DNA from: a virus
Taxonomy: Duplodnaviria > Heunggongvirae > Uroviricota > Caudoviricetes
DNA: 64,000 bases
Virus record (IMG/VR): IMGVR_UViG_2651869695_000003
Reading direction: 5' to 3' (one strand)
Under the pieces are notes generated by a model that did no database searches, had not been told where the DNA came from, and worked only from the letters and a program-made list of their open reading frames with translations. This document shows, in pieces, positions 49,196 through 56,034 of this stretch. Each line of letters starts with the position of its first letter. The stretch's first letter is position 1. A program made the translations under genes and the position numbers.

Positions 49196-50133
49196 CCCCT
49201 GAATCCTGCCGGGATCTGGCTGTAGTCCACATTGTCGTAACTGGCTTTGAAGTACGGGTCTTCGCGTTTTTCTGTGTACGTGCTGACGGACGGCGATAAG
49301 CGCAGGGAAAGCTCATCCCATTTTTCCCGCAGCTTCGACGGGCTGAGCACGTTACGGCACCAGAACGGATCGCGGCTGACGCGGCTGTACATCTCGCAGA
49401 TTTGTTTGTGAGTACGACCATCCTGCACACACATCAGGCGAATTTCGTTTGCCCAGGCTGTCCAGTTCGGTTCTTTGGGACGAACCACCTCGCCGTCACA
49501 TTCGGCAGCCTGCTCGTACAGGGCGATGATTTTTTTCCAGAGCCACTGTGCGCAGGTCAAATCATCCTGCGTCCCCCACTGGCGCTTTTTAGGGCTGAAT
49601 ACAACCGCATCAGGATGGCGAGTTAAAAAATCCTGTTCAGCCGTCTGCGTGTCCGGTTGCGAAGCGTCCGGACGAGAAGGTTTTTTATCTGACGGATCAT
49701 GTTTTGATTTTACTGACGGATCCCCGCCAGATTCTGACGGGTGAAAACCCGCTTTTTTGCCAGATTTCGACGCATCAAATTTTGACGGGTCAGATTTTGA
49801 TGCGTCAGATTTTGACGGGTCAGAATCTGACAGTTGAGAAAATGCCGCTGCCTGAAGCTTCGCAACGTTAAGCTGATAAACATTCGACGCATTGCGGTTA
49901 CCCTGGCGACGCGCCTTACGCGTTAACCAGCCTTCTGCTTCCAGCCGTGCGATAGCCGTTCTGACGGTACTCATCCCCGCGCCAATCTGACGGGCAATGG
50001 TTTCAATTGATGGCCAGCACACACCTTCGTCATTACTGAAATCAGCCAGGCGGGCCATAATTGCCACGCTGGATAACTTCATGCCTGATGCAGCGCAACC
50101 ATCCCATACATAGCCGGTTAATTTAGTGCTCAT
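49192..50133 (-). CDS. Replication initiation protein (O-like; HTH N-terminus, internal pentapeptide repeats)
   Basis: N-terminal winged-helix-like region; internal tandem 15-bp DNA repeats; position downstream of cro/cII-like genes. Confidence 0.55.
   Translation of the reverse strand: MSTKLTGYVWDGCAASGMKLSSVAIMARLADFSNDEGVCWPSIETIARQIGAGMSTVRTAIARLEAEGWLTRKARRQGNRNASNVYQLNVAKLQAAAFSQLSDSDPSKSDASKSDPSKFDASKSGKKAGFHPSESGGDPSVKSKHDPSDKKPSRPDASQPDTQTAEQDFLTRHPDAVVFSPKKRQWGTQDDLTCAQWLWKKIIALYEQAAECDGEVVRPKEPNWTAWANEIRLMCVQDGRTHKQICEMYSRVSRDPFWCRNVLSPSKLREKWDELSLRLSPSVSTYTEKREDPYFKASYDNVDYSQIPAGFRG
49728..49835. repeat. Iteron-like tandem 15-bp direct repeats inside replication gene (candidate ori)
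   Basis: CAGATTTTGAYGSGT units at 49728, 49761, 49776, 49791, 49806, 49821 read directly. Confidence 0.5.
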
Positions 50134-50142
50134 GACCGACCT

Positions 50143-50481
50143 CTATTTCCCTGAATTTACGACGAAACTGTTCGAGCGGACTGAAGCATTCATGCTCATA
50201 ACCTTCGCGGAGGTAGATAACCCGTTGTGTTTCCGGCTCCCAACGAATGACTCTGACGGGTACTCCGTAGTGATCTTTGAACCAGCGGTTAACTTGTCGC
50301 AAAGGACTGTCTCCTTCTGCCGGTTGAAATCACCCACAGCCCACTCTGCAAAGCTGTGGGTTACAATTTCCCTGTCACCTGGTACATTCACTGCATAGCA
50401 ATATTCCACCTTCGCTTTTCCACCCGGAACAGGAAGCGCAATCAGTTGCGAGCGACGGTAGTGTGTTGTTAAACTGTTCAT
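50143..50481 (-). CDS. Hypothetical early protein (112 aa)
   Basis: Start overlaps upstream stop; otherwise unsupported. Confidence 0.3.
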
Positions 50482-51047
50482 GCGTTAGTTTCTCCACAAC
50501 CAGAAGCAATCGACGCCACGACGCCCGGAGCTGCACACTCGCGGGCGTCATTACTTTCTGAAATGCAAAAAATTTTGTAGACCAGTGCTGCATGCTCCTG
50601 CAGCTTCGAAATTGAGAGATACAGCTCGTCGTTAATTGCTGTCTTCTCATGCGGTTCCACTACACCGTCTTCGATTGCTGAACGAATCTGTTTTGAATAA
50701 CTGCCGATCTGTTCAATGACTTCCAGCAGACGCTGGTTAATATCGGCGTTGTCCACATCCTCGACGTCAGGAAGAGACACAAAGACGCCATTTGCAGACT
50801 GCGCCACAGCATCAGCAATGAAGTGAGTGCCACCAGCACGCTGTAAAACCATTGCCCATCCCAGCGGGAAAATCTGATCGCCATCTGCACGAAGGCGGTT
50901 GAATAAAGCGTTTTCTGTTACATCGAGCCAGTCAGCCGCTTCAGCGTAACCACCCGGCAACGCCGCGATAGTTTTTCTGACAGCTTTCACGTACCACTCA
51001 GGCTGTTTTTCTATTTTCCAGTGATGCTTACCCACAATTAGCCTCAT
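50478..51047 (-). CDS. CII-like phage regulatory protein (putative)
   Basis: 189 aa directly downstream of cro-like gene; weak resemblance to enterobacterial phage CII-type regulators. Confidence 0.4.
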
Positions 51048-51078
51048 CGTTCTGTGGTTAAAAATTGAAAGTGTTCTG

Positions 51079-51279
51079 CTAATCTTTCGGATAGATATCC
51101 GGTCTTAAGTCAGATTTCGTAATTGCACCTGACGTGCATTGCTCAAGTTTTTTAGCCAGCACAAAACTGGCTTTTTTATAGCCATTGAAAACCAGCCGTA
51201 AGTAGCCAGGTGTTGAGCCAACTTTTCCGGCCAACTCGCCCTGCTGTTCTTTGGTTAAAGAGTCCCAATACGCTTTCAT
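51079..51279 (-). CDS. Cro/YdaS-like HTH regulator
   Basis: 66-aa HTH protein divergent from cI-like repressor; start at first ATG of the longer ORF 51079..51582. Confidence 0.6.
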   Translation of the reverse strand: MKAYWDSLTKEQQGELAGKVGSTPGYLRLVFNGYKKASFVLAKKLEQCTSGAITKSDLRPDIYPKD

Positions 51280-51282
51280 ACA

Positions 51283-51354
51283 ATATGTACCTCCGATGTA
51301 CATATTACATGATTGAAATGAACCTTCAAGATACTTGTACCTTAACGGTACAAG
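51283..51354. promoter_or_regulatory. Operator region (OR-like): two TGTAC-N7-GTACA inverted repeats between cro and cI
   Basis: ATATGTAC-N7-GTACATAT at 51283..51305 and CTTGTACC-N5-GGTACAAG at 51334..51354. Confidence 0.45.
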
Positions 51355-51369
51355 GGTTTTAATTTCGTT

Positions 51370-52044
51370 ATGAAAACAATCCATGACATCCGGCGGTCTA
51401 ACGCCAGAAAACTGAGAGATGGTGTTGGCGGGAATTCTTCCTTTGCCACTATGATTGATCGCGAGCCAACCCAGACCAGCAGGTTTATGGGAGATGGTGC
51501 TACTAAAAATATCGGTGACAGCATGGCACGACACATCGAAAAATGTTTCGACCTGCCTGTCGGATGGCTCGATCAAGAACACCAGACAACGAACATCACA
51601 AAAAAACCTGATGTTTCAATCACTAATAAACAAATCACATTAGTCCCTGTCATATCATGGGTACAGGCCGGAGCATGGAAAGAAGTTGGATATTCTGAGG
51701 TTGATTTGAGCACAGCAGAAACGTATCCCTGCCCTGTACCCTGTGGGGAAATGACTTATATCTTGCGGGTGATAGGTGATTCAATGATTGATGAGTACCG
51801 CCCGGGAGACATGATTTTTGTCGATCCTGAAGTACCTGCCTGCCACGGTGACGACGTTATTGCATTGATGCACGATACAGGTGAAACCACCTTCAAAAGG
51901 TTGATAGAAGATGGGACACAGCGTTATCTCAAAGCGTTAAACCCAAACTGGCCTGAGCCTTACATTAAGATCAACGGTAATTGCTCTATAATTGGTACAG
52001 TGATTTTCTCAGGAAAACCAAGAAGATACAAAATCAAAGCCTAA
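51370..52044 (+). CDS. CI-like repressor (HTH + S24 LexA-type peptidase domain)
   Basis: C-terminal ...VIGDSMIDEYRPGDMIFVDP... autocleavage domain motif; divergent from cro; no SD (possibly leaderless like lambda PRM transcript). Confidence 0.8.
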   Translation: MKTIHDIRRSNARKLRDGVGGNSSFATMIDREPTQTSRFMGDGATKNIGDSMARHIEKCFDLPVGWLDQEHQTTNITKKPDVSITNKQITLVPVISWVQAGAWKEVGYSEVDLSTAETYPCPVPCGEMTYILRVIGDSMIDEYRPGDMIFVDPEVPACHGDDVIALMHDTGETTFKRLIEDGTQRYLKALNPNWPEPYIKINGNCSIIGTVIFSGKPRRYKIKA

Positions 52045-52057
52045 TCAATGTTTATGA

Positions 52058-52079
52058 ACCTGCTTCGGCAGGTTTTTTT
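52058..52079 (+). terminator. Rho-independent terminator after repressor gene
   Basis: ACCTGC-TTCG-GCAGGT followed by TTTTTTT. Confidence 0.55.
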
Positions 52080-52083
52080 ATAC

Positions 52084-52115
52084 TTGACAATGTACCTTTG
52101 AGATACATAATGTAC
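52084..52115 (+). promoter_or_regulatory. PL-like promoter with overlapping operator half-sites
   Basis: TTGACA (52084..52089), 16-bp spacer, CATAAT (52106..52111); TGTAC/ATACA half-sites overlap. Confidence 0.45.
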
Positions 52116-52216
52116 CCAAGCGAAACAACGAACAGGCAGGACGCCCACGAAGTAGCCGCCTGGGGCATATGAAGTCCAGGATGATTCGTTGAGTCATGTT
52201 GTGCCACTAGGCACTC

Positions 52217-52513
52217 ATGTTAAAGCAGGTGTATGAAATGAAAGTCCAGATTTTAAACAATAACTGTGAAGTCGTTTGGTCATACGACATAGCCGCCCCT
52301 GTAGATCAGAGCGGCGATAGCTGGACCAATGGGAAACATCAGATTATGGCTGGAGTTGTGTTCTCTTTACGCCGTGCTTTGGAACAGGCTGAAGTATTTC
52401 CATCAGACCCTGAATGGAAATGGCCTTTTTCTATTTGTCCAAATTCGGAGAGCACATTTCAGAAAATTGGTCAGAAAGTCGCACTCGAAGAGCATCAGCC
52501 AACTGTTTCCTGA
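52217..52513 (+). CDS. Hypothetical early-left protein (98 aa)
   Basis: First ORF downstream of PL-like promoter; overlaps a competing minus-strand ORF. Confidence 0.3.
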   Translation: MLKQVYEMKVQILNNNCEVVWSYDIAAPVDQSGDSWTNGKHQIMAGVVFSLRRALEQAEVFPSDPEWKWPFSICPNSESTFQKIGQKVALEEHQPTVS

Positions 52514-52676
52514 TTTTTTCAGGTAACTCGTCGGCATCGCAGAAACAACAACGCTCGATCATGTTGAAAGCCGATTCGTAGAACTGTTTTTGCTGAGTGT
52601 CGCTGAGACAGGAAAAGAGCGACGTTACGATGATTTTATTAATTGCATTATCAAGTTCTTTTTCATCAAAAGTCAT
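52431..52676 (-). CDS. Hypothetical protein (81 aa), alternative to overlapping plus-strand ORF
   Basis: Protein-like composition; only one of the two overlapping ORFs is likely real. Confidence 0.25.
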   Translation of the reverse strand: MTFDEKELDNAINKIIVTSLFSCLSDTQQKQFYESAFNMIERCCFCDADELPEKIRKQLADALRVRLSDQFSEMCSPNLDK

Positions 52677-53095
52677 TTGATTTTCCTTTTATGTATACGG
52701 GCTTAAAAGGATACCACCGAGCCTGAAGTGGTGAAAAGACAGGCACATAACAGCTAAGTATTTTCAACCAGAGAGAATCCTTAGCGTTGTGGTGAATGCG
52801 GCTCAGCGCACGCGGGTTAAGGTTGAGGCTGACAGTCGACCTTCTGTGGATACCCACCCGTCTGGTGTGCAACCTTCGCCAGGCACCGGGAGGCACCCGG
52901 CACCACAACTTTATGCTGTGTGTAGTCCTGGCGGTACCAGTTTGTACCCTTGCTTCCGGCTGGTACCGTCCTTTTTACAAAACAGAGAAGAGCATCACCG
53001 GACGACGGGCTCATAACCCAATCCATCCGGGCGGCTGCCACCGCAGGTGTTCTTCTCTGTTTTGTGGAGAAACTAATCGGCCTTGCAGGGTCGAT

Positions 53096-53476
53096 ATGAT
53101 GAGGAGCAGCAAAATGGCTAGCGAACGCAGTACTGATGTGCAGGCATTTATCGGGGAGCTGGACGGCGGCGTATTTGAAACCAAAATCGGCGCAGTTCTC
53201 AGTGAAGTCGCTTCCGGTGTGATGAACACGAAAACCAAAGGTAAGGTCTCACTCAACCTGGAAATCGAACCATTTGATGAGAACCGTGTGAAAATCAAAC
53301 ACAAACTCTCATATGTTCGCCCGACTAACCGCGGGAAAATTTCTGAAGAAGACACCACCGAAACGCCGATGTATGTCAATCGCGGTGGTCGCCTGACTAT
53401 TCTGCAGGAAGACCAGGGACAATTACTGACTCTTGCCGGTGAACCTGACGGAAAACTCCGCGCAGCAGGTCATTAA
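53096..53476 (+). CDS. Hypothetical early protein (~126 aa)
   Basis: Start taken at internal MMRSSKMASER...; upstream part of ORF 52796..53476 looks non-coding. Confidence 0.4.
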   Translation: MMRSSKMASERSTDVQAFIGELDGGVFETKIGAVLSEVASGVMNTKTKGKVSLNLEIEPFDENRVKIKHKLSYVRPTNRGKISEEDTTETPMYVNRGGRLTILQEDQGQLLTLAGEPDGKLRAAGH

Positions 53477-53541
53477 TATCGTTTTTAATTAACTGATTAT
53501 TTATCTCATCACTGAATATTTTTATATAGTGAGGACTTATT

Positions 53542-54366
53542 ATGTCTCAGAACTTAGACGCAACCGCAATTAATCAAATCCATGCCCTTATTTCTGCTCA
53601 GGGTGTTAATGAAATTATCAGTAAGATTGGTGCCGACGCAGTGGCATTACCTGAAAATTTCCGCATTCATGATCTGGAAAAATTTAATTTAAATCGCTTC
53701 CGTTTCCGTGGTGCGCTTTCCACTGCCAGCATCGATGACTTTACCCGTTATTCTAAAGATCTTGCAGATGAAGGCACCCGCTGCTTTATCGATGCCGATA
53801 ATATGCGAGCCGTCAGTGTGCTTAACCTGGGTACTATTGATGAACCAGGTCACGCAGATAACACTGCCAATCTCAAACTGAAAAAGACAGCACCGTTCTC
53901 TGCCCTGTTGTCTGTTAACGGCGAGCGTAACTCCCAGAAGTCACTGGCAGAATGGATTGAAGACTGGGCCGACTACCTTGTGGGCTTTGATGCTAATGGT
54001 GACGCCATTCAGGCAACCAAAGCGGCTGCGGCGATCCGTAAAATCACAATTGAAGCGAACCAGACCGCTGATTTTGAAGATAATGACTTCAGCAGCAAAC
54101 GCTCCCTGATGGAGTCTGTCGAAGCGAAGACCAAAGACATTATGCCAGTGGCATTTGAATTTAAATGCGTTCCGTTTGAAGGTCTGAAAGAACGTCCGTT
54201 TAAATTACGCCTCAGCATTATCACTGGCGATCGTCCTGTACTGGTTCTGCGCATTATTCAGCTGGAAGCGGTACAGGAAGAAATGACTAACGAATTTCGT
54301 GATCTGCTTGTTGAGAAATTCAAGGACAGCAAAGTAGAAACCTTTATTGGTACTTTCACCGCCTGA
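53542..54366 (+). CDS. YfdQ-like prophage protein (DUF2303)
   Basis: 274 aa; recalled resemblance to E. coli prophage YfdQ family; followed by YfdR-like gene. Confidence 0.5.
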
Positions 54367-54493
54367 TTTCATTACTGCAAATGCCCCTGCGGGGGCATTT
54401 ATGGAAACGTAATTAACTCAATAATCACCGGATGGTGAGGGCTTCCTTTTACCAGAATTCAGCGCGGTGCAGTGCATATACGTGGAGAACAAA

Positions 54494-55018
54494 ATGTCAT
54501 TTATTAGAACTTTTTCCGGGAAGCATTTTTATTATGAAAGGATAAATAAAGACGACATCGATATTAACGATATCGCGGTTTCCCTTTCAAATATCTGTCG
54601 CTTTGCCGGTCATCTTTCGCACTTCTACAGCGTCGCCCAACATGCGGTTCTTTGCAGCCAGCTGGTGCCGCAGGAATTTGCTTTTGAAGCGTTAATGCAT
54701 GATGCAACAGAAGCGTATTGCCAGGACATTCCCGCACCACTGAAACGCCTTCTTCCTGACTATAAACGAATGGAAGAAAAAATAGACGCCGTAATCCGTG
54801 AGAAATACGGGTTACCCCCGGTTATGAGTACGCCCGTGAAATATGCCGATCTCATCATGCTGGCAACCGAACGCCGCGATCTCGGGCTTGATGATGGCTC
54901 TTTCTGGCCCGTACTGGAAGGTATCCCGGCAACAGAGATGTTCAAAGTTATTCCACTGTCGCCAGGCCATACCTATGGGATGTTTATGGAACGCTTTAAA
55001 GAGTTAACTGAGTCGTAA
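54494..55018 (+). CDS. HD-domain phosphohydrolase (YfdR-like 5'-deoxynucleotidase)
   Basis: H...HD...E motifs (HFYSVAQHAV ... MHDATEAY ... D); start at internal Met. Confidence 0.55.
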   Translation: MSFIRTFSGKHFYYERINKDDIDINDIAVSLSNICRFAGHLSHFYSVAQHAVLCSQLVPQEFAFEALMHDATEAYCQDIPAPLKRLLPDYKRMEEKIDAVIREKYGLPPVMSTPVKYADLIMLATERRDLGLDDGSFWPVLEGIPATEMFKVIPLSPGHTYGMFMERFKELTES

Positions 55019-55126
55019 AAATCAGCACGTACGAATTCAAACTCTGCCATAAAAGAACATATAAGTAATTTATTAACATATAGATATAGGTTATATTACA
55101 AATTGAAAAATTATTGGAGAGCAACA

Positions 55127-55993
55127 ATGAATCAAAATCCATTCTCATTCTATGACTTTCTTGGATATTTAATACCAGGTGGTTTTTTTATCCTATTAAT
55201 GTATTTCTGTGGTTTGACATTCGATCTAGATATTGTTATTGACTTAAGTGAATTGCTCAGAGGTCAAAGTCAAATCTTTGGCATTTTGAACTACGCTTCA
55301 ATAGTTATTATATCTTATATAGCTGGACATTTTATTTCTATCACGTCAGCATTTTTTATCGAAAAATACATGAATAAAGAATTAGGATATCCTTCCAAAT
55401 ATCTATTTAAAAAATTGATAGATACCTCAGAAAGCATTTGTAGCCCATCATGCGATGAGAGAAGCGCTGATAAAAAAACAAAAATAAAGAATCGCATAAT
55501 CAAATGCGTATTATGTCCAATAATACTATGGGATTTTATAACACAAAAACTATGTTATTCTCAATCTCTACCATTTCATTTAGCTAATACAACATGGTTA
55601 ATGATCAAAGAAGGTTATGAGAAAAAGTTCATAACAAATCGCCAATTATTACAAGATAAAAACGGACTTGATGATGATCTCTTCAGATTGGCATATCATT
55701 ATGTTTATGAGTTTTCAAAACAACATCAAACAAAAATTCAAAACTATGTTGCATTATATGGTTTTTGCAGAAACATATGTTTAATCTTTATAATTTCATT
55801 TTGGGTATCAGTTCCAACCTTTATTTATCGATTATGTACTCATAGTGATTATCTTTATAGTTTACTTTCAATAATGCTTAGCTTTTTCTTCGTCTATGTC
55901 TTCTATGTTGGTTTTGTTAAATTTTATAGAAGATATACTTTAGAAGTATTAATGGCATTTGCTGTACTTCAAAGTAACGACACTATTCGTTAA
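55127..55993 (+). CDS. AT-rich multi-pass membrane protein (cargo)
   Basis: Several hydrophobic helices; GGAGA 6 nt upstream of ATG 55127; very low GC. Confidence 0.5.
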   Translation: MNQNPFSFYDFLGYLIPGGFFILLMYFCGLTFDLDIVIDLSELLRGQSQIFGILNYASIVIISYIAGHFISITSAFFIEKYMNKELGYPSKYLFKKLIDTSESICSPSCDERSADKKTKIKNRIIKCVLCPIILWDFITQKLCYSQSLPFHLANTTWLMIKEGYEKKFITNRQLLQDKNGLDDDLFRLAYHYVYEFSKQHQTKIQNYVALYGFCRNICLIFIISFWVSVPTFIYRLCTHSDYLYSLLSIMLSFFFVYVFYVGFVKFYRRYTLEVLMAFAVLQSNDTIR

Positions 55994-56034
55994 TAATGTT
56001 GCTCCCGTGTGCAGACGGGATAATGGAGAAACGT

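Follow-up and report, generated by a model that had tools for sequence, protein, structure and literature searches.

The 64,000-nt stretch of viral DNA examined here (IMG/VR record IMGVR_UViG_2651869695_000003, Caudoviricetes; its full length is called the window) almost certainly carries, in the non-coding gap upstream of the gene yfdP, a plus-strand, pseudoknotted RNA unit of the STnc100/PasD superfamily that bears the signature of a terminator. Both homology and architecture lead to this assignment. An earlier sequence-only reading had described a structured non-coding leader in an early-left operon, and the description holds: the DNA here is 99.8% identical to that of Shigella phage SfV, and the region lies on the plus strand of a lambdoid prophage, downstream of a cI-like repressor gene and a pL-like promoter. 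The further remark in that reading, that the region could also be a small RNA (sRNA), proves to be the better description, since the region matches the prophage sRNA family STnc100. The interval that had been marked, 52860-53095, is indeed structured, but it cuts the main element in half, the core starting at 52786 and lying mostly outside. When 52740-53120 is folded, the plus strand reaches -162.6 kcal/mol (z = -6.0, with 0 of 100 dinucleotide shuffles as good) and the minus strand -141.5 kcal/mol (z = -3.0).

The unit is built around a core domain of about 125 nt with five helices (52786-52909, +), which is recognized by an Rfam STnc100 match, by a covariance model of our own (R1) and by covariation. 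Helix P1 (52786-94/52901-09) is followed by the junction AAU (52795-97), P2 (52798-52802/52808-13), H3 (52814-16/52857-59), P4 (52860-67/52877-84) and P5 (52886-90/52896-900), all on the plus strand. P5 corresponds to the CCGGG/CCCGG repeat that had been noticed earlier, and CCGGG at 52886-52890 does pair with CCCGG at 52896-52900, around the loop AGGCA. An H-type pseudoknot joins AAGGUUG (52819-25, +) to CAACCUU in the loop of P4 (52870-76). A competing local hairpin of minimum free energy, AAGGUUGA/UCGACCUU (52819-26/52836-43), was rejected: it is not conserved in ST64B and phiES15, whereas the pseudoknot partner CAACCUU is conserved, with a compensatory change in phiES15. Directly 5' of the core stands the entry hairpin P0, an inverted repeat of GCUAAGuAUUUUC and GAGAAUcCUUAGC (52753-65/52773-85, +), and hairpins of other sequence occupy the same position in ST64B, phiES15, P1-like phages, L080 and lambda (L-numbers are our labels for the phage sequences compared). 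In the P1-like phages and lambda (L007, L008, L135 and L080), the 3' arm of P0, UGCUCUUU, resembles boxA but is paired within P0; the same arm reads AUCCUUAG in the window, with no boxA.

Relatives of the 5' part of the unit were found by BLAST in ST64B (88%), phiES15 (77%) and the P1-like phages SJ46 and JL22 (about 71%), all of them oriented with the downstream genes. Their alignment preserves two blocks, UUGUGGUGAAUGCGGCUmAGCGCACGCGGG and CACCGGGAGGCACCCGGCACCrCAA, and the segments between these are variable in sequence and self-complementary. The 20-mer that spans P5, ACCGGGAGGCACCCGGCACC, is present in at least 120 IMG/VR viral contigs, and 107 distinct core variants occur among the matches listed. 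Model R1 was built from 53 representatives aligned at ≤90% identity; at E ≤ 0.001 it detects 105 copies, spread over 77 loci, the majority with 70-103 bits, and the window core, with 85.2 bits, falls inside the range of the others. Because recruitment through the 20-mer makes P5 look invariant among the sequences so gathered, variation in this helix is visible only where the model itself supplied the copy (LLS, mEp460 and L019). Phage LLS, for instance, has GGUGG/CCACC as P5 and retains the loop AGGCA.

Covariance analysis across related phages, which had been suggested as a check on the original description, finds both the helix pairing and the pseudoknot conserved with covariation. For the nested helices in 102 distinct copies, 96.7% of cells are paired, compared with 82.2% for shuffled partners and 40-50% for partners displaced by 1-3 columns; the covariation score is 0.412 vs. 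0.133, with 17 of the 26 pairs changed on both sides, and these margins remain large even though the alignment was fitted to the model and hence leans towards the modelled structure. P4 alone displays six pair types per position. The pseudoknot, in which 6-10 nt immediately after H3 pair with the P4 loop, is backed by 65 distinct helix sequences, and strands matched with their own partners form a mean of 7.14 contiguous pairs versus 4.94 +/- 0.12 for reassigned partners, a value that none of 5000 permutations equalled. Individual phages provide further examples. The pseudoknot of phiES15, AAGGCUG/CAGCCUU, differs by a compensatory U-A to C-G change, and a Klebsiella phage copy (73.7 bits) has exchanged P1 for a 16-bp helix of unrelated sequence. 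Moreover, the helices contain 142 G-U pairs and 23 A-C pairs, an excess that identifies the plus strand as the RNA strand. R1 also gave a weak match at 54368-54480 (+), in the gap between yfdQ and yfdR (19.9 bits, E = 3e-4), centred on the P2-like hairpin AAAUGCCCCUGCGGGGGCAUUU, and another at the equivalent place in mEp460 (14.4 bits). We considered 54368-54480 as a second core and judged it probably to be a P2-like terminator hairpin.

The family assignment comes from a match to Rfam STnc100 (RF02076) at 52756-52978 (+), which covers the full length of the model (positions 1-206) with 41.2 bits and E = 1.5e-6. No Rfam family is called at its gathering threshold anywhere in the window, and none besides STnc100 appears within 50000-56000 at E ≤ 1. 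Matches below threshold were likewise obtained on the core strand of ST64B, phiES15 and the P1-like phages SJ46 and JL22, and the copies in HK639, L045, L085 and L076 score 52-81 bits, above the gathering score. STnc100 was first listed in Salmonella and is a Gammaproteobacterial prophage sRNA family (Rfam RF02076). RNA-seq reads map to all 11 copies in strain EDL933, of which one was also verified on a Northern blot (PMC5331693), and one STnc100 copy lies 75 nt downstream of stx2B (PMC12370729). STnc100 and the RNAs PasD1 and PasD2 have been judged to share ancestry and structure (bioRxiv 10.64898/2026.05.13.724894), and PasD1/PasD2 of the enteropathogenic strain E2348/69 show Hfq-dependent stability and have RIL-seq targets (PMC8550237). 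The window copy combines homology to STnc100 with covarying core helices (P1, P2, H3, P4 and P5) and a 3' terminator. To judge from its sequence, it is clearly a homologous, divergent member of the STnc100 superfamily, though one that lies below Rfam's own call.

Three inverted repeats had been reported in this region, and all are present at the places given, but they are not separate features: they correspond to P5, to the terminator T1 and to a P0-type hairpin, all belonging to a repeated RNA unit centred on the core at 52786-52909. Between the core and T1 runs a conserved single-stranded linker, UGCUGUGUGUAGUC (52914-52927, +), which is nearly identical in ST64B, phiES15, phiNP and LLS although the flanking helices change; its conserved form is UGCUGUGUGuAGUC. 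The linker is a candidate seed or Hfq-contact region, and a search of the window for its targets found no complementary site above chance. T1 (52930-52976, +) has a 13-bp stem (52930-42/52958-70) with arms GGTACCAG and CTGGTACC, a 15-nt loop, and a C followed by UUUUU (52972-76), and folds with -21.4 kcal/mol. It has the G+C-rich hairpin and U run of an intrinsic terminator and is predicted to act as one, and the earlier suggestion that terminators act here is borne out by this one hairpin with its five-U run and with stems that differ among relatives. At the place of T1, the relatives carry hairpins of other sequence with compensatory pairs and 5-7 U. A simple terminator scan misses T1 because its loop, which is unusually long, exceeds 8 nt. 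Within T1 lies the first of the reported repeats: CGGTACCAG (52932-52940) pairs with CTGGTACCG (52960-52968) through fully complementary 9-nt arms as proposed, with a spacer of 19 nt rather than 21. A riboswitch-like switch between P4 and T1, based on the complementarity CGCCAGG/CCUGGCG, was considered and discarded on finding by inspection that it is unconserved in ST64B and phiES15.

Beyond T1 lies a long hairpin, HP2 (52972-53070, +), with 25 contiguous base pairs including G-U (52972-96/53046-70), a branched top and a predicted energy of -51.2 kcal/mol. Its stem pairs the U run of T1, from 52972, with GGAGA, which ends at 53070. This is the second reported repeat, for which the arms ACAAAACAGAGAAGA (52977-52991) and TCTTCTCTGTTTTGT (53051-53065) and the 59 nt between them were correctly given; the stem is longer than the 15 bp assigned to it, and an inverted-repeat search extends the arms to 25 nt with 84% complementarity (52977-53001/53041-53065). 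Compensatory changes in HP2 are seen in ST64B, phiNP, LLS and L101. HP2 and the bases that follow it (ACAaAACAGaGAAGAGCAU...GUGuUCUUcUCUGUUUUGUGGaGAA) align with P0 and the 5' end of the core in lambda, JL22, L027, L049 and L080 (ACAACAGGUAAGAGCAU...GUGCUCUUUCCGUUGUGGUGAAU). On this alignment, HP2 is of the P0 type and belongs to a second unit that was cut just after the start of P1. The remnant consists of HP2 and the first bases of P1, GUGGAGAA, and together with HP3 it forms the 5' leader of yfdP. HP3 itself, AUCGGCCU-UGCA-GGGUCGAU (53076-53095, +), is a small hairpin just 5' of the yfdP ribosome-binding site, and ST64B, phiNP, LLS and L101 have a hairpin of different sequence in its place. 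Taken singly, these elements fold with z scores of -7.4 (HP2), -5.0 (P0), -3.7 (T1) and -3.0 (HP3). The order after the core, namely linker, hairpin with 5-7 U, long hairpin, GUGGAGAnAC, small hairpin and ribosome-binding site of a yfdP homologue, is kept in ST64B, L043, phiNP, LLS, mEp460 and L101, L043 being an IMG/VR relative and L101 a distant one. The comparison of the T1/HP2/HP3 module draws on six sequences.

The tip of HP2 carries a motif, ACGGGCUCAUAACCCAAUCC (53003-53022, +), that aligns with the E. coli initiator tRNA gene metY. Within it, the 14 nt of CGGGCUCAUAACCC match the anticodon arm of this tRNA exactly, the loop CUCAUAA and the three G-C pairs among them. A looser form, ACGGGnUCAUnnCCCAAUC, is always on the strand of the core, where it lies within HP2 in ST64B (L005 2757-72) and upstream of the core in P1-like phages (L007 2457-72; L008 2178-93 and 2457-72) and in L027 (10129-45). 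This initiator-tRNA look-alike may be mimicry or may be due to chance. A tRNA or tmRNA gene was also considered and rejected, since ARAGORN finds none in the window and the likeness is limited to the 14-nt identity with the metY anticodon arm.

Where the copies sit in phage genomes bears on what the RNA might do. By simple pattern rules, a promoter of sigma-70 type, usually of the form TTGACx-N17/18-TAAATT, precedes P1 in about one third of the copies, its end lying about 6 nt away, and a strictly defined terminator follows P1 at 20-35 nt in about 60%. A Q gene on one side and the lysis genes on the other flank the unit in HK639 and L045, the only two sequences for which Q was confirmed, automatic picking of upstream open reading frames (ORFs) being noisy. 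Both Q proteins fall into PHROG 943, and the HK639 protein is similar to the Q21 structures 6P18 and 6JNX (E = 6e-46). STnc100 at the Rfam threshold is, in Q21-type phages, the 5' part of a constitutive late leader RNA. Copies of the window type (P2 = GCGGCUmAGCGC) are found in early-left leaders (SfV, ST64B, phiES15 and Klebsiella phages) or before tciA of P1. Tandem units also occur, with five copies in L076, four each in L038 and L019, and three at a spacing of about 250 nt in L029.

These arrays lie in late regions of IMG/VR prophage contigs (L076 4376-5464 and 8376-8520; L038 1722-3286; L029 369-993; L019 2321-3354). Those of L029 and L038 have a repeat of about 250 nt, and most array units end in a terminator, several of them having no recognisable promoter. 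A block, CCUGGUAAAUCGGUAGCUCGGACUAUUAGG, is conserved about 100-140 nt downstream of the core in L085, L015, L030, L045 and L122, in the space that separates the late-leader core from the terminator ahead of the holin gene. In lambda, a degenerate unit is discernible between tR' and S (NC_001416 44784-44945; L135 1285-1446), with a P0 of AAGAGCAUUG...CAGUGCUCUU, a P1 of GUUGUGCUG/CAGCACAAC and an unrelated 64-nt interior. Other small RNAs occur near the relatives, namely isrK in ST64B (L005 21-97, -; 64.3 bits, above the gathering score), isrI in L076 (5220-5316, +) and an annotated "M3-like RNA" in HK639 (L009 37910-37969).

On balance, we favour the view that the locus consists of repeated phage RNA units, of which unit 1 makes an sRNA ending at T1 and the remnant of unit 2 leads yfdP. 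Unit 1 would be complete, with P0, core, linker and T1, and unit 2 truncated. Transcription that enters from the pL-like promoter, or begins at a weak promoter nearby, would mostly stop at T1, yielding a stable structured RNA of about 140-220 nt whose length would be set by its 5' end, through processing at P0/P1 or a local start. By analogy with PasD, this RNA would associate with Hfq and use the linker for base pairing with targets in trans, a mechanism that we propose only tentatively. Transcripts that read through T1 would fold HP2, and cleavage there by RNase III would separate the RNA from the yfdP-yfdQ-yfdR-xis-int message.

Several points weigh against this view. The window copy scores less than the RF02076 gathering score of 47, and neither STnc100 nor PasD has an established function. 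Expression as a discrete RNA is known for the EDL933 relatives only, and MG1655 lacks the region, so that K-12 datasets are of no help. No convincing promoter lies directly upstream of the unit, and the best local candidate, AAGACA-17-TATTTT, is not conserved in the relatives. A terminator is absent from about half of the window-type copies, and these lie 27-120 nt before the next start codon (tciA in P1-like phages, Klebsiella L136, and L013/L027/L049), which would suit a leader transcribed together with its operon better than an independent sRNA gene. The role of HP2 as an RNase III substrate in read-through transcripts is plausible and is drawn from helix length alone, the stem being 25 bp for an enzyme that requires about 20 bp or more of largely uninterrupted double-stranded RNA. 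Finally, the fold is more elaborate and more conserved than a base-pairing sRNA requires.

The most serious rival is a cis-acting leader whose core acts on its own transcript, either by put-like processive antitermination past T1 or through the stability or translation of the downstream genes. T1 and HP2 would then form an attenuator and processing module that gates yfdPQR-xis-int. We give such a leader a minor but appreciable probability. The core is always oriented with the downstream genes and placed in operon leaders, several terminator-less copies abut a ribosome-binding site (P1 tciA at +27 nt, Klebsiella L136 at about +40 nt), and the copies at the Rfam threshold begin at about +1 of late promoters, after a Q21-type Q gene and before at least one terminator and the lysis genes. 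No N can be recognised in the phage, and the conserved pseudoknotted fold suggests recognition by a macromolecule. Nevertheless, the core-plus-terminator arrays of L076, L038 and L029 and the Northern-verified RNAs imply that termination is common just after the core, whereas an efficient antiterminator would have the contrary effect. The window contains one copy of the core, with none in the rightward operon, and on inspection the core and T1 share no alternative pairing that is conserved. The put RNAs are cis-encoded structured RNAs of about 70 nt with two stem-loops and a put consensus sequence, located downstream of pL and pR in lambdoid early leaders, upstream of terminators (PMC9378689). 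The HK022 putL and putR regions and the HK639 putL-like RNA region, inspected by eye only, show no similarity to the core in sequence or structure.

A related and bolder idea is that the core is a widespread, fold-dependent phage RNA domain that binds a host machine, such as RNA polymerase, the ribosome, an RNase or a tRNA-handling enzyme. It may then act in cis on elongation, processing or translation, or serve as a decoy. Its placements across phages of the Enterobacteriaceae range from Q21-type late 5' ends and early-left leaders to the tciA-ban leader of P1 and tandem core-plus-terminator arrays. In the modelled fold, P5 stacked directly on P1 resembles the minihelix of a tRNA acceptor and T arm, which would fit mimicry, as would the initiator-tRNA anticodon-arm look-alike of HP2/P0 if its sequence likeness is meaningful. 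We regard this proposal as rather improbable; if true, it would define a new class of phage regulatory RNA.

Other explanations fare much worse. A nut-like site, with boxA and boxB for an N-type antiterminator, had been suggested from position, and the location downstream of a pL-like promoter and the boxA-like 3' arm of P0 in some relatives do speak for it. However, 52050-53120 contains no match to the boxA pattern [C/U]GCUCUU[A/U], the boxA-like words of the relatives are sequestered by pairing within P0, and neither orf33 nor the other small ORFs have an arginine-rich motif or an N-like family annotation, so that no N-like protein is at hand. Furthermore, the same core is found in late leaders and in P1, where N is inactive. 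We therefore find a nut-like site very improbable. Equally poor are the prospects of inverted repeats that act in the DNA as an operator, recombination site or cruciform. The long perfect palindrome arms would suit such a role, but the abundance of G-U and the scarcity of A-C pairs confine pairing to one strand, the plus strand folds better than the minus strand by about 21 kcal/mol, and a pseudoknot with a multi-helix junction would be meaningless in DNA.

Least probable of all is a protein-coding origin, either as an in-frame upstream extension of yfdP (52796-53476) or as the protein that PGAP placed at about 52789-53099. ORFs of 75 and 226 amino acids are indeed present, and RefSeq NZ_AP022177 lists a pseudogene there (locus H7R11_RS13265, "frameshifted hypothetical protein"), as several phage records list hypothetical proteins. 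Close relatives differ by 1-nt and 25-nt indels, however, and their substitutions are compensatory across helices, which together rule out coding. In addition, a strong Shine-Dalgarno sequence precedes the yfdP ATG at 53114, and the yfdP of MG1655 retains only about 20 nt upstream of this same ATG. Given the covariation and indels, the pseudogene and the hypothetical proteins laid over the RNA locus look like annotation artefacts.

The gene order on the plus strand is cI-like, terminator, pL-like promoter, orf33, RNA locus, yfdP, yfdQ and yfdR, to which related genomes add xis and int, and it marks the plus strand as the direction of the early "leftward" operon. The annotated cI-like repressor is of LexA type (51370-52044, +). 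Downstream of its gene and the terminator, a promoter scan finds the pL-like promoter TTGACA-16-CATAAT (52084-52111, +; 11 of 12 matches), which is the likely source of plus-strand transcription into the RNA locus. The ORF list gives orf33 (98 aa; 52217-52513, +) and, overlapping it on the opposite strand, an 81-aa ORF (52431-52676, -); just one of the two is likely to be real, and the minus-strand ORF, if real, is convergent with pL transcription. On the other side of the locus, yfdP has the Shine-Dalgarno sequence GAGGAG at 53102-07 and its ATG at 53114-16 (gene 53114-53476, +; ORF list and RefSeq/SfV annotation; PHROG 204, function unknown). No Pfam domain was found in orf33, the 81-aa ORF or yfdP, and each belongs only to a PHROG family of unknown function, orf33 and the 81-aa ORF to separate ones. 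The non-coding gap, put at about 380 bp in the sequence-only reading, is larger than that: counted up to the yfdP ATG at 53114, it spans 437 nt if the start of the minus-strand ORF (52676) is taken as its border, or 600 nt if the end of orf33 (52513) is. In the CPS-53 prophage of MG1655, which retains about 20 nt upstream of the yfdP ATG, the RNA element is absent. Just upstream of unit 1 lies a 45-nt block, GGATACCACCGAGCCTGAAGTGGTGAAAAGACAGGCAcATAACAGC (52708-52753), that is about 96% identical in several Klebsiella phages (L136 1501-1546), in which the cores after the block have diverged. On the minus strand, this block reads as a hairpin with a T-run just upstream of the start of the 81-aa ORF.

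DNA matching the locus was found in 2785 of 5426 complete E. coli genomes, or about half, and also in Shigella, Salmonella, Klebsiella, Cronobacter and P1-like phages, where it is unannotated or mislabelled as a frameshifted protein. Several features of the RNA appear to be new, namely the pseudoknot, the extension of the family to early-left leaders, P1 leaders and lambda, the link between copies at the Rfam threshold and Q21-type late promoters, and the origin of HP2. The five-helix junction and H-type pseudoknot are missing from both the Rfam consensus structure line and the RNAalifold model of the preprint (bioRxiv 10.64898/2026.05.13.724894), and queries of the literature with sequence strings returned only irrelevant matches. 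The STnc100/PasD superfamily thereby reaches beyond both the Rfam threshold and the late region. The fold also defines precise disrupting and compensatory mutations with which abundant prophage RNAs near Shiga toxin and lysis genes could be probed. For the phage itself, expression of yfdPQR-xis-int driven by pL must cross the predicted terminator T1 and a long hairpin of processing type.

Comparison with known systems places the window copy closest to STnc100. The two share P1, P2, P4 and P5 in equal order, the P5-to-P1 sequence CACCGGGAGGCACCCGGCACCA, the GGUGAAU start, the blocks UGGUGAAU and CACCGGGAGGCACCCGGCACC and a terminator after the core, and a joint covariance model scores window-type and STnc100-type copies alike, at 70-100 bits. 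In the window, however, P2/H3 reads GCGGCUCAGCGC...GGG/CCC where the family has CCCCCUGUGCGGAGGGG...GCG/CGC, and the copy has no adjacent upstream promoter, lies in the early-left operon rather than the late region, and has a remnant unit attached. PasD resembles it in being intergenic in lambdoid prophages and in the structure shared with STnc100 (bioRxiv 10.64898/2026.05.13.724894). PasD differs in adjoining Q and lpxR in the late region, and the link between it and the window copy is by description, not by sequence.

The put RNAs offer a similar setting, that of a structured RNA in a lambdoid early leader upstream of a terminator. Phage HK639 holds a putL-like RNA in its left operon and an STnc100 copy in its late leader, and hence put and STnc100 are distinct elements. 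The lambda 6S RNA (the pR'-tR' leader) and StxS are comparable in that copies at the Rfam threshold fill the same slot, in the series Q, promoter TTGACx-N17/18-TAAATT, leader, terminator and holin; the window copy, in contrast, belongs to the early-left operon, at a distance of about 670 nt from pL, with no Q nearby and no promoter adjacent to it. To our knowledge, neither lambda 6S RNA nor StxS has been described as pseudoknotted. RNase III processing hairpins are found in phage leaders such as the lambda N leader and at the early sites of T7. HP2 resembles them as an irregular duplex of at least 25 bp with a branched top, set between an RNA element and the first downstream cistron, and it differs from them in that its cleavage is a prediction and that by descent it would be a P0 hairpin.

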